A stretch of 64,000 nucleotides of DNA from Antedon mediterranea (Eukaryota > Animalia > Echinodermata). Positions 58,201 to 62,359 of the stretch are shown piece after piece. The stretch covers positions 18,662,001 to 18,726,000 of the forward strand of contig NC_092671.1 in NCBI RefSeq assembly GCF_964355755.1, read 5' to 3'. Position numbers and translations under genes: made by a program. Position 1 is the first letter of the stretch. Each line of letters opens with the position of its first letter. Below the pieces are notes generated by a model. The model saw only the letters and a program-made list of their open reading frames with translations. It did not search any database and was not told the origin of the DNA.

Positions 58201-61200
58201 CAGGGGAGCATCTCCCCGATTATTTCATTGAACCCGATAATCAGGGGAAAGTTTTAATTCCATCCACCATTCATCGGGGTGGGACTGTTCCTAAAGTTTG
58301 CGTGGCGAATCTTACGGGCAGATATGTAACACTTAAACAGGGAGAGGTTGTGGGGAATGCCACTGAGTGGGAGGGTAATCATGCGCCTTCTCAAGGGGGA
58401 TCGGTGTCCACCGTAGGGGTTGACAGTGCAGAGAAATCCTCCACGGAACAGGGTGGGGTACCACAACACCTGGAAGGGATGTTATTGTTAGCGGACGTAG
58501 CGAAAACCTTGACCGGATCTGAGTTCGATAGGGCGAAACAACTGCTCATTGAGTTCCAAGATGTCTTTGCGGCTCATCAATTTGATATAGGGACTCTGAA
58601 GGGTATTGAGCATACTATTGATACGGGGGATGCGCCGCCAATCCGACAACGACTCCGACCAACTCCCATGCACTTCGCCAGGGAGGAGGAAAAGGAGATC
58701 AATAAAATGTTACAAGCAGGGGTGGTTCAGCCGGTGTTGGTACGCAAACGGGACGGCTCAGTGCGGTTATGTATCGACTACCGGGTTCTAAATAATGTTA
58801 CAATTAAGGATGCCTACCCTCTGCCCTTGGTACGGGATTGTCTCGACGCTTTGTCGGGCAACACATGGTTTACCAAATCGGATGCCATATGGGGGTACTG
58901 GCAAATTAATATGGGGGAAAAGGATAGGAGAAAAACGGCATTCATTACCAAGTACGGGCTATTTTAATTCGTTAAAATGCCGTTCGGGCTATCAAATTGC
59001 CCAGCCACATTTTCACGGGCTATGGGTTTAGTATTGAGGGGGATAGCCTGGGACACCGTTCTTGCCTTTCTGGACGACATTGTAGTCATGGGACGGAATT
59101 TGGATGACCATTTGGGCAATATCCGACATGTTTTAGAACGTTTCCGTGCAAGTAGCCTTAAGCTCAAGCCGAAAAAATGTATTTTTTTCCAACGGGAGGT
59201 GGAATTCCTAGGCCGGGTGGTTGGTGAGGATGCCTTATCGATTTCGGCTACAGATGTTACTGTAGTCCAGGATTGGCCCGTACCTACTTTGGTAAAGGAG
59301 TTGCAACAGTTCCTGGGACTGGCTAATTATTACAGAGAATTCATTGACCATTTTGCCGATAAGGCTGGGCCGTTGTATGAATTACTGGGTAAAGGGGTGC
59401 CATTTGTATGGGGATCCGAACAGCAAGCTGCTTTTGCTGGTTTAAAGTTGGCTCTCATTACACCTGCTGTTCTCACTCTTCCTAATACCAGGGACGAATT
59501 CATTTTAGATGTGGATGCGTCAGACCTGGCGTTGGGGGGAGAACTACTACAAGTACAAGGGGATCGGGAGAAGGTAATTGCGTATGCTAGCACCCGTCTT
59601 ACGGCGGAGCAGCGCAATTACTGTACGACCCGCAAAGAATTATTGGCGGTGGTGTATTTGACGCGTCATTTTTGCCACTATCTCTTGGGTAGACCTTTTC
59701 GGGTTAGAACAGACCATAGCAGCCTGGTCTGGTTACTGTCGTTTAAGAACCCCCAAGGGCAATTAGCTAGGTGGATAGAGGAACTCAGCCTCTATAATCT
59801 TGTCCTGGAACATCGTAAGGAGGTACTACATGGGAATGCAGATATGCGTTATCCAGTCAGGCCGGACCGGTTGACCACTTTGAGCAGGGGTTGATCCCGG
59901 GGATTTGCCTTGCGGGGGATGCTCTTATTGCGTCAGGGCACATAGCCGGTGGGTCCGTTTCCGGGAGGACGTGGATGACGTAGTCCCGATTTAACAAATC
60001 CGGCAAATAGGACCGGACCCAATGAGGAGGGGCTGGTGGACCCGGGTGGGACTACGATCGAGGTCGTACGGGGGCCTTCGTGTTGTGCCATTAATTTGGT
60101 TCAAGACGATGTGGGGGGAATCTCAGCTATACAGCCCGACGGTCGGGTATCCATGTGCTGAGGATACTTCCGTAAAGAGCTTGAGCAATTTCAGGCTAAG
60201 GATCCCGATTTGGCAGCTATCAGGGGGTGGTTAGAATTGGGGGAACCGCCAGACGGGGAATTATTTAGCTCCAGTCCGGCGACTAAGCACCTATGGCTGA
60301 ATCGGGAGTGGTTACATATCGGGGAGGATGGGCTCCTTTACATTTTCAGGGATGACATGGGAGGCGAGCGGCTAATTTTGCAGCGAGAACTCCATGCGGA
60401 GGCTCTGAAGCTTCATCATGACATTCCATCGTCTGGGCACCAGGGAATGTCCCGCACCAAGCTCAGACTCCGAACTAAGTTTTTTTGGTATGAGATGGGG
60501 AGAGATGTGGAGCGCTACATCCGGGCCTGCGAAATCTGTAATCAAAACAAAAAGACTGCACATAAGGGCAGGTCCCCGTTAACGGAGTTTCACGCAGGGT
60601 CGCCAATGGAGCGGGTCCACATTGATTTCTTGGGACCATTACCTAAGTCGGAGGCGGGTAACGTCCAGATCCTTATGATGGTGGATCAATTTTCAAAGTG
60701 GGTGGAGATTAGTCCGTTACCCTCACAGACTGCAGAGGTGACGGCCAGGGCTTTAGTGGCGAACTTTTTTAGTCGGTTTGGGGTTCCGTTCGAGCTGCAT
60801 TCGGACCAAGGCCGTAATTTCGAGAATGAACTGTTTGGTTCTCTCTGTAAAGTTCTCCAAATTCACAAGACCCGGACGACCAGTTATCGTCCATCCGCCA
60901 ACGGACAGGTCGAGTGTTATAATCGCACACTGATGGATGCGGTTCGTTGCTTCGTCGGGAAGAGGCAACGGGACTGGGACGTCCATTTACCTCAAATAGC
61001 GGGGGCGTTGCGGGCGACCGTTAATCCCGCATTTTGACGCACATTTTCATCTGGACCGTTTATTTTCGGCCCTAGGGCTGCCCCCAATATATCAGCTACG
61101 CCGTGCGAGGGATGCAGACCCGGTAAAGCCAGGAGATCCAAAGGTCACCGTTGTAGGGGCAATCGCGGTTTTCTGTGATCCGCCCACTTACCCATCCCTT

Positions 61201-62359
61201 AGGGAGATAGATCTGATGCAGTCTCCGCCGTACAACCATGTTTCGATTGGGCTGCACCCCACACGCATGGTATCGGCGCGGGAATTAGGTACTTTCCGGG
61301 GATTGACCCAGAACTTGAGTGTTCGGGCGCTGGGAGAGGTGGGTCTGGACCACAACCGGTCCATTGCCGACTGGCCCCGACAAGATCGGCTCTTGGAGCG
61401 GATTTTGCGGGAATGTTTTTGTCCTCAGCGTCATCACGTGCTGACTCTGCATTTGCGGGGTGCGGCGAAGGATCCAAAAGGGGAGGAATGCTACCTCCGA
61501 GGGCTGGACCTTCTTCGGCTGGTGGGGGTACCCCGTGGGCAGAAACTTATTTTGCACAGTTTTTCGTCATCTATTTTCATTGTGGAAGAGTTCCTGAGAT
61601 TCTTCCCAATGACTTATTTCAGTTTCAATTTGGGGGTTGGGCGAGCGTGCCCAGCGGTACAGGAGGCATGCAGGTATCTTATGTACCAGTCTGAGCGCCA
61701 GGTTCTACTGGAGACGGATGCTCCTCATTTCCGTCCGGCGGGCCACCGGGTAGGCTTTCCTTACTTAATCGGTTTTGCCGCCGAAGCTCTGGGGAAGGTT
61801 ACGGGAATGGAGGCCAGTGAGGTTCTGGACCTCACCTGGAAGAATGGCCGGGATTCTGATTCCGGAATAGTCTCGCTCCACTAGGGGCCCAGAAGTGTTT
61901 TTGTTGTTTTGTTAATAAAATTAAGGAGGAGTATAGTTATTTTGAGTTTAGTTAACAGGAGCTTGTTTAGTTGCAATTTGCACCGGGCCAAGGGCCGGGT
62001 GCTACGTTTCGAGTCACCAGTTGGCGGTTCTTTAAACCCAGTTTCAGGGATGGGCAGCAACGCTACATAACACTTTTTTTGTCAAACTAGTTTGATAGTG
62101 TAGACAGAGCTTAAGTAATAATACTACTAAATAAAATACTCTCAGCAGCTGTAGCCTAGTAGAGGCTAGCCTAGAGAGGGACTAAATTCCCATCCCATAC
62201 TACTTCTTGGTGGGCCTGGCTAGGTAGCCTAAAGTGTGTACGCTCTGTTATTTAACTAACCGATATTATTGGTAGGCTTGACACAGTTTCTATCAAAGCG
62301 TCAAAACTTGTAGTTCCTACAGTTACAAAGGCAACTTTATCGTTGTATTCTGCTGCCAT
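49183..62359 (-). CDS. ALG13: UDP-N-acetylglucosamine transferase catalytic subunit ALG13 (short form), 4 exons, 171 aa
   Basis: Exons 62359-62261, 55034-54872, 54292-54154, 49297-49183 splice in phase (516 nt). Motifs [65 protein letters not shown] match the GT28-C/ALG13 family. Confidence 0.95.
51890..52770 (-). mobile_element. 5'-truncated LINE (Rex1/Babar-like reverse transcriptase) nested in the Academ element
   Basis: [39 protein letters not shown]-terminal [38 protein letters not shown]; frameshifted. Confidence 0.75.
52870..53905 (+). repeat. Three imperfect ~340-360-bp tandem units in the Academ 3' sub-terminal region
   Basis: CATCAT(T/G)TTTCCTATTT..ATAGGTACAG..GTAAAAGGTCA..GGCATAAA recurs at ~52913, ~53249 and ~53611. 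Confidence 0.7.
54154..54292 (-). CDS. ALG13: ALG13 exon 3
   Basis: [46 protein letters not shown]. Confidence 0.93.
54872..55034 (-). CDS. ALG13: ALG13 exon 2
   Basis: [50 protein letters not shown] donor. Confidence 0.92.
55593..55856 (+). CDS. ComEA-like helix-hairpin-helix domain ORF, probably the disrupted N-terminus of Gag
   Basis: [48 protein letters not shown] fits the HHH_3 pattern (vNinta.eeL..lpGiG...A..Ii..R...G.f.s..dL..v.Gi). It is the first good-context ATG (ACCATG) in the element. Confidence 0.7.
   Translation: MPIDGNRIRVNFCTLEQLCDIPGIGVVRADEILSLRTRLGNISSVIDLSSIKGLSKKPEFLSRFDFSPNLRLSPEDFSRMLGSVSSL
56380..57686 (+). pseudogene. Gag (capsid-like region and CCHC zinc knuckle), frameshifted
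   Basis: [48 protein letters not shown] capsid-like stretch; [14 protein letters not shown] knuckle at 57585-57626; stop TAG at 57684-57686. Confidence 0.8.
57674..57715 (+). promoter_or_regulatory. Candidate programmed -1 ribosomal frameshift signal at the gag-pol junction
   Basis: T-TTA-AAC heptamer in the Gag frame just before the Gag stop, then after 8 nt a GC-rich hairpin (GTCGG..GGTC..GACC.CCGAC). The -1 frame is open to 57931 and leads into the protease region. Confidence 0.65.
57681..61037 (+). pseudogene. Pol: protease remnant, reverse transcriptase, RNase H and integrase; disrupted
   Basis: DMLLGGDFL (protease C-terminus; no DTG motif seen); [37 protein letters not shown] (RT); [21 protein letters not shown] (RNase H); [26 protein letters not shown] (integrase). 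Premature TAA at 58965-58967, frameshifts, integrase C-terminus missing. Confidence 0.92.
61033..61884 (+). CDS. TatD-family metal-dependent DNase carried by the retrotransposon
   Basis: The frame of ORF 61216-61884 is open upstream to [10 protein letters not shown] (GAC at 61036). Motifs DAHFH, GLHP, GEVGLD, LHLR, LHSF and LLETDAP reproduce the TatD ligand set. No ATG lies upstream of DAHFH in this copy, so it may be non-functional here. Confidence 0.85.
   Translation, partial: FDAHFHLDRLFSALGLPPIYQLRRARDADPVKPGDPKVTVVGAIAVFCDPPTYPSLREIDLMQSPPYNHVSIGLHPTRMVSARELGTFRGLTQNLSVRALGEVGLDHNRSIADWPRQDRLLERILRECFCPQRHHVLTLHLRGAAKDPKGEECYLRGLDLLRLVGVPRGQKLILHSFSSSIFIVEEFLRFFPMTYFSFNLGVGRACPAVQEACRYLMYQSERQVLLETDAPHFRPAGHRVGFPYLIGFAAEALGKVTGMEASEVLDLTWKNGRDSDSGIVSLH
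62261..62359 (-). CDS. ALG13: ALG13 exon 1
   Basis: [39 protein letters not shown] donor. Confidence 0.9.

Follow-up and report, generated by a model that had tools for sequence, protein, structure and literature searches.

The window, a stretch of 64,000 nucleotides from the echinoderm Antedon mediterranea (NCBI RefSeq assembly GCF_964355755.1, contig NC_092671.1, positions 18,662,001 to 18,726,000, forward strand), contained between 55239 and 62050 a broken Gypsy retrotransposon whose 3' part encoded a TatD domain. An unbroken frame of 283 codons plus stop at 61033-61884 matched PF01026 along profile positions 1-247 of 253 (E 1.4e-21, 77.4 bits, curated cut-off 27), and its translation displayed the complete set of TatD motifs (DAHFH, GLHP, GEVGLD, HLR, HSF and ETDAP). 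A sequence-only reading of this DNA had described just such an uninterrupted frame of about 280 codons with every motif and had proposed the PF01026 search, and it was borne out on both counts. The group II metal site (HxH, E, H, H, ExD) was also complete (H4, H6, E102, H140, H175, E227 and D229), and these ligands shared alignment columns with bacterial and host rows. The frame was devoid of Met upstream of the HxH motif, the first one lying at 61216. Directly before it, an integrase frame (60162-61037, H2C2 and rve domains) abutted TatD in a different frame, and both lay, as had been read earlier, in a GC-rich element (0.50-0.54 across 56-62 kb, compared with 0.27-0.39 for the flank at 45-55 kb). 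The element belongs almost certainly to a Gypsy clade whose third open reading frame (ORF3) carries TatD. The window copy itself is a dead, internally deleted relic, relevant only as a pointer to that clade.

All parts of the copy lay on the plus strand, and from 5' to 3' they comprised a helix-hairpin-helix, capsid, reverse transcriptase (RT), RNase H (RH) and integrase core (INT), with stops and frame changes throughout. The 5' long terminal repeat (LTR; 55239-55512) had a firm start, with TG at 55239, before which contigs of other copies showed loose ends and at which depth rose, and an approximate end, at 55478 or about 55512, set from a primer-site-like match to relatives. Behind it, the stretch at 55515-55536 resembled the post-LTR motif found at equal offset in two relatives (L138 and L139) and may be a decayed primer-binding site. 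A broken gag followed at 55596-57626, fragmented compared with that of L138, with Pfam matches to HHH_3 (E 1e-8), PNMA (4e-7) and Retrotrans_gag (1e-5) and a CCHC knuckle at 57585-57626 identified by reading the sequence. The helix-hairpin-helix at the start of gag (55596-55856, E 1e-8) recurred, weakly, in all four relatives scanned (L138, L139, L145 and L148). The broken pol (57897-61026) matched RVT_1, RT_RNaseH, Integrase_H2C2 and rve, carried stops and frame changes, and aligned to L138 pol as three pieces in two frames, with a stop in each, up to L138 residue 1603 of 1823, where it was cut. A protease was scored in relatives, and gag, RT, RH and INT were in order in the window.

At 61026-61027 lay a deletion joint, by which about 2-3 kb were lost: the tail of the integrase, with its PHD finger, and 440-830 codons from the start of ORF3. 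The TatD domain (61033-61884) was the surviving end of this ORF3, with its metal ligands present and its start codon lost. It was followed by a 3' untranslated remnant (61885-62050) truncated at 62050, behind which a contig from another copy, in sample X6, diverged from the window. No second (3') LTR copy was found in the 64-kb window; paired LTRs were present in relatives L138 and L145, and the window copy retained the 5' one only. A very high-copy short repeat ended at 62066-62115, right at the truncation point of the element.

Public contigs from four samples aligned to the region showed that the joint is genuine DNA and an internal deletion. X5 came from another sample and another study of the same organism as X1, itself perhaps the sample from which the window came, and X6 and X8 were two samples of a second organism from one study. 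The joint was spanned by a contig of X1 (60926-61345, 0 differences) and by one of X5 (60924-61256, 3 differences), while an X6 contig followed the window to 61026 and then ran on for 657 unlike letters, X8 having a similar loose end. In X6 and X8 an empty site was also found, 55188 being joined to 62217 with about 106 letters between; the target duplication was unreadable, the 3' end being gone. The empty-site contig had a depth of 47.7 in X6 and 236 in X8, compared with 255-299 and about 870-2100 for pol contigs and 306 and 1622 for TatD contigs, contig depth being a rough guide and not a copy number. Pol and TatD were thus raised alike in depth where the window site was empty. Since the contig of other copies ran past 61026 and pol and TatD depth was raised over an empty site, the joint represents a deletion in the window copy, and TatD belongs to a multi-copy family. 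From integrase residue 288 to TatD residue 1, the distance was 2030-3189 nt in 11 relatives and 7 nt in the window, and the stretch missing here included 212-233 further pol residues with a PHD finger at the end in all 11. The internal deletion suggested earlier by the out-of-frame abutment was therefore found, bridged in two samples, and the doubt that the region might be a one-off was settled by TatD seen in contigs of further copies.

A motif scan of genome contigs yielded 21 stretches, 8 of which were clade members located in two bins titled Sedimenticola (G001 and G002). Searching both bins entirely gave 18 contigs with TatD of the window lineage, 4 with TatD of a second lineage and 2 bacterial ones. 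Fifteen of the 18 had pol immediately upstream in the same orientation (11 with integrase core, 4 with pol tail), the other three holding no DNA upstream of ORF3 and being too short to tell. Among 123 integrase matches to the window, the 11 integrase-linked TatD contigs took the first 11 places (53-61% identity), the next match reaching 48%. The homologues were accordingly multi-copy and pol-linked, and the Gypsy lineage proposed at the outset stood against single-copy, unlinked host genes. The elements in G001 and G002 look like host DNA in symbiont bins. These two bacterial bins held 112 and 11 matches to Gypsy integrase, respectively, and their ORF3s were named bacterial TatD hydrolases in NCBI.

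Two relatives (L138 and L145) displayed the order LTR, primer site, gag, pol, ORF3, purine tract, LTR, with LTR overlaps of 216 nt at 96.8% and 94 nt at 98.9%, respectively. The intact layout comprised a gag with helix-hairpin-helix (HhH), then protease (PR), RT, RH and INT ending in a PHD finger, and then a separate ORF3 of 700-1100 aa with a basic patch, a finger/helical domain and TatD. TatD was therefore present as cargo, as had been read, in the form not of a bare domain but of the last domain of a long third ORF. ORF3 was a frame separate from pol in 11 of 11 linked contigs, with its own Met in intact copies, and a starfish gene model (P0305) fused integrase, PHD and TatD. The PHD finger formed the pol C-terminus in all 11 linked contigs of G001 and G002 and was found neither in the second lineage (C1247) nor in the ORF3-less C90; a literature search on Gypsy, PHD finger and integrase found no paper on this combination. 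Controls were taken from 27 of about 110 TatD-less contigs: the TatD profile matched none of 20 control integrase contigs, 10 of which ended at most 400 nt past the pol stop and were uninformative, and none of 7 further ones matched ORF3. No clade member was found in viral contigs, and a metagenome scan gave one clade member (L006, too short for pol) among the 80 loci listed, the rest being mostly bacterial TatDs.

Homologue searches returned 45 and 27 proteins, together with 912 representatives at E 0.001, of which 304 reached 1e-10. Many relatives were single ORFs of 600-1150 aa with TatD at the end, and the named ones came from crinoids, starfish, scallops, ark shell, abalone, sea slug and Lingula, the nearest belonging to the crinoid Anneissia (41-47%). 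Databases labelled them as uncharacterised, 'putative TATDN2' or 'YcfH-like' and annotated them as ordinary genes. Four unnamed clusters, drawn at 90% identity, had 17-64 members each, both complete and partial, spread over numerous large contigs; a mobile ORF would be expected to show such a pattern. The relatives, lying inside LTR elements and forming near-identical multi-member clusters, were not a single cellular gene. A second Gypsy lineage (L148, which is G001:C1247, with L129, L134 and L135; P0265-P0299) carried an ORF3 of about 500 aa with the finger/helical domain and TatD, in clusters reaching 79-206 members, and P0298 had an extra NADAR domain.

The TatD domain of a relative, P0003, was predicted with high confidence (pLDDT 93) and superposed on structure 6l25 (Z 29.5, root-mean-square deviation 2.5, 247 residues aligned), the model having a TIM-barrel fold of TatD type. 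The H,H,E,H,H,D ligands were kept in 131 of 143 full-coverage representatives, a set scoring at least 210 bits to a profile from the motif-filtered set, from which very decayed members drop out, and in 34 of 34 members of the second lineage. On sequence grounds, a metal-dependent nuclease activity of ORF3 is likely. The finger/helical domain, of about 135 aa, was shared by both lineages (profile match, 100% probability over the whole ORF) and had a high-confidence predicted fold; neither the window nor any of the 10 TATDN2-like proteins tested contained it, and it had no Pfam family and no Atlas match above chance. A basic patch preceded the finger in 14 of 26 ORF3s, compared with 2.4 expected; for 21 of the 26 a finger was matched, in one case to another knuckle. 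Among these 26 ORF3s no 19-residue window exceeded a hydropathy of 1.65, as a membrane-spanning stretch would, and no env family matched, TatD being the sole strong Pfam family.

The 13 TatD-bearing integrases of the window lineage formed one clade (100/99), as did the RT-RNase H sequences in a tree of 8 rows (100/98). Five groups (C729 and C228; C655 and C13; C834 and C1277; C827 and C555; C607, C713 and C436) appeared in both the integrase and TatD trees, and integrase and TatD distances were correlated (Mantel r 0.745, p 0.0001, n=13). The dN/dS comparison proposed earlier was run on relatives: TatD gave 0.133, 0.143 and 0.146 in three of six pairs, one of these near saturation and two from the second lineage, and the other three were saturated at silent sites (pS 0.79-0.91 against pN 0.26-0.33). 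Within the window family, 7 of 10 listed TatD differences fell at third positions, a small subset not used as evidence. Read at the level of trees and rates, this shows TatD to have been inherited together with the element's pol and to be under purifying selection in relatives.

The tree against bacterial and TATDN groups that had also been proposed, with 91 TatD rows, separated elements and TATDN2-like hosts from bacterial and TATDN3-like rows (split 100/100), and the window TatD grouped with two Anneissia rows (100/100). A bacterial origin, suggested by YcfH-type PDB matches and symbiont labels, was rejected on this tree and because the contigs so labelled are Gypsy elements. TATDN2 is reported from most eukaryotes (PMC10085689), which makes host-to-element the simpler direction, and TatD was likely captured from the host TATDN2 branch. 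Integrase neighbours of the second lineage (C606 and C1139) showed no ORF3, so that losses or a swap are needed; one capture followed by later losses would be the simplest reading for both lineages.

Taken as a whole, the data were best explained by a Gypsy clade whose TATDN2-derived ORF3 works in the nucleus as a two-metal nuclease that cuts RNA, which we consider fairly probable. Human TATDN2, the one protein for which RNase activity on hairpins and R-loops is reported, is described as nuclear, as dependent on E593 and E705 for degrading RNA hairpins and the RNA within R-loops, and as cutting RNA more than DNA (PMC10711561), and fish tatdn2 as protecting germ cells from R-loops (PMC12709183). 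Matched by motif, E102 and E227 of the window would correspond to human E593 and E705. The grouping with TATDN2-like proteins thus favours an RNA or R-loop nuclease over a DNase. In the earlier claim of a captured DNase, the capture by a Gypsy lineage held, and the term DNase became uncertain. By analogy, ORF3 could serve as a nuclear RNA-strand nuclease keeping the element transcribed, a tentative mechanism that we place somewhat below an even chance. ORF3 would be translated from a message of its own, probably a spliced one, as the rotifer case would suggest (PMC5408684), and the basic patch ahead of the finger domain would bring it into the nucleus. There it might degrade RNA at element loci, either structured RNA or the strand paired with DNA in RNA:DNA hybrids, and this removal could keep the element transcribed against RNA-guided silencing by the host.

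Several observations pull away from the explanation by a TATDN2-derived RNA nuclease. The host side of the TatD tree comprised four TATDN2-like rows (tick, mite and two nematode) with automatic or author-assigned names, with no TATDN1 row and no vertebrate, mollusc or echinoderm TATDN2, and purifying selection drew on second-lineage sequences for two of its three measurable pairs. A sister element (G001:C90), complete with two LTRs, had no ORF3. P0139, the nearest full-length crinoid relative, lacked H6 and E102, and P0140 lacked most ligands, the frames of both remaining open despite this loss. 11 TatD-bearing elements and 20 others showed no difference in GC, G skew or GGG (G-skew p 0.58), so that element composition gives no call for R-loop removal. 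Moreover, TATDN3, YcfH and YjjV of the HxH group are reported to be DNA exonucleases and AP endonucleases (PMC10085689), and the fold therefore does not fix the substrate.

An ORF3 acting on DNA, by trimming or proofreading cDNA 3' ends, nicking abasic sites or cleaning integration gaps, would agree with the 3'-5' exonuclease and AP-endonuclease activities reported for TATDN1, TATDN3 and the three Escherichia coli paralogues (PMC10085689), and a nuclear signal is compatible with DNA processing too. The best solved-structure matches were likewise YcfH-type enzymes, but the PDB matches included no TATDN2 chain and are indecisive. We regard this activity as rather unlikely, because the domain grouped with TATDN2-like rows and not with YcfH or TATDN3, because an ORF3 separate from pol in 11 of 11 linked contigs is not assured of packaging with cDNA, and because sister elements lack ORF3. 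The loss of ligands in the crinoid P0139 and P0140, and of at least one ligand in 12 of the 143 representatives, might instead point to a nucleic-acid-binding module or decoy in the window sub-branch, for which catalysis would be dispensable; with all ligands kept in the window copy, in the other 131 and throughout the second lineage, such a role appears improbable.

Escape from innate sensing through destruction of DNA or hybrids in the cytosol was the least supported of the three functions in the sequence-only reading. Parasite TatDs are reported to act against host defences (PMC10085689), but the basic patches suggest nuclear import, an unconfined DNase would presumably threaten the element's own cDNA, and a link to a sensor was not seen, which leaves this function very improbable. 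Hardly credible was a single host TatD retrocopy or misassembly beside a Gypsy integrase: frames abutting out of frame, a window TatD enclosed by no 3' LTR and public records naming relatives host genes would fit it, but the joint was bridged in two samples, TatD contigs were as deep as pol contigs where the site was empty, 15 of 18 contigs were linked to pol and the trees were congruent. This one-off juxtaposition was refuted by the pol-linked, LTR-flanked relatives. On a broader and more doubtful reading than that of a TATDN2-derived RNA nuclease, an old undescribed animal Gypsy group of echinoderms, molluscs and brachiopods, with PHD-tipped integrase and HhH-tipped gag, might have co-opted the germ-line R-loop RNase TATDN2 of its hosts as an accessory protein, made up of the finger/helical domain and TatD, that would remove RNA from hybrids at the element's loci and thereby counter RNA-guided silencing. 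Such an element would manipulate both chromatin and RNA, and its ORF3 would account for many records named 'TATDN2-like', 'YcfH-like' or, in symbionts, 'TatD'.

The Gypsy clade whose third ORF bears TatD is real. The nearest published case is found in bdelloid rotifers, whose LTR retrotransposons Juno and Vesta encode a DEDDy 3'-5' exonuclease as ORF3. Both have a captured, non-env, nuclease-type ORF3 after pol in a Gypsy-like element, with catalytic residues kept and function unproven (PMC5408684). The fold differs (DEDD there, TatD TIM barrel here), the clade described here has a multi-domain ORF3 of 700-1100 aa, and the rotifer ORF3s are reported from recent branches (PMC5408684), whereas the TatD ORF3 spans several phyla and co-diverged with pol. 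TatD had no occurrence in that paper. With host TATDN2 (TatD group II, HxH), ORF3 shares the HxH and E/E/D positions, a C-terminal TatD after a long N-terminal part and the side of the 100/100 branch (PMC10085689, PMC10711561, PMC12709183), but it is element-borne, intronless and multi-copy, and has the finger/helical domain. The position of the third ORF, behind pol and ahead of the 3' LTR, recalls errantiviruses and env-bearing Ty3/Gypsy elements, from which the present one differs by its enzyme fold and by having neither a membrane-spanning stretch nor an env family match. A chromatin-reader domain at the integrase C-terminus recalls chromoviruses, though the relatives have a PHD finger (deleted in the window copy) instead of a chromodomain.

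Accessory domains reviewed for LTR elements include chromodomain, DnaQ-like exonuclease and helicase (PMC6338049). TatD term searches in the texts of three invertebrate LTR-element surveys gave none (PMC13524379, PMC12440569, PMC6238403), and no description was found in the literature on TatD with retrotransposon, Gypsy, transposable element, RT, integrase or LTR, a search outside which Repbase, Dfam, GyDB and supplements fell, so that such a family may already be noted in a catalogue. Most third ORFs of LTR retrotransposons other than env lack an explanation, and the single nuclease case met in print, the rotifer DEDDy, is narrow, its function unproven. The nuclease ORF3 described here is clade-wide, co-diverged with pol, under purifying selection and present in intact natural copies, so that what an element gains from a captured host nuclease can be asked directly. 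The clade also supplies more than 100 diverged, confidently folding relatives of TATDN2, a protein for which PDB searches gave no chain and which one group reported being unable to purify (PMC10085689). Annotations can be corrected where ORF3s are listed as host TATDN2 or YcfH-like genes or as bacterial symbiont TatDs.

Other extra ORFs were encountered behind pol (L161:6672-7589, L160:5761-6513, L159:5306-6055, L165:3470-5110 and L145:8209-9093), of C2H2-finger and coiled-coil-like types or, with 547 and 295 aa, without Pfam family. Elsewhere in the window, long Ig-domain membrane proteins, each encoded in a single frame, clustered at 465-15536, and a single-frame Toll-like receptor (LRR and TIR) lay at 9916-12291 on the minus strand. 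At 20560-21225 there was a fragment, resembling an exon, of a peptidase from the angiotensin-converting-enzyme family. Tandem arrays were located at 34886-36748 (low-complexity, with repetitive open frames), 52888-53897 (unit about 370 nt) and 63700-63897 (unit about 35 nt).

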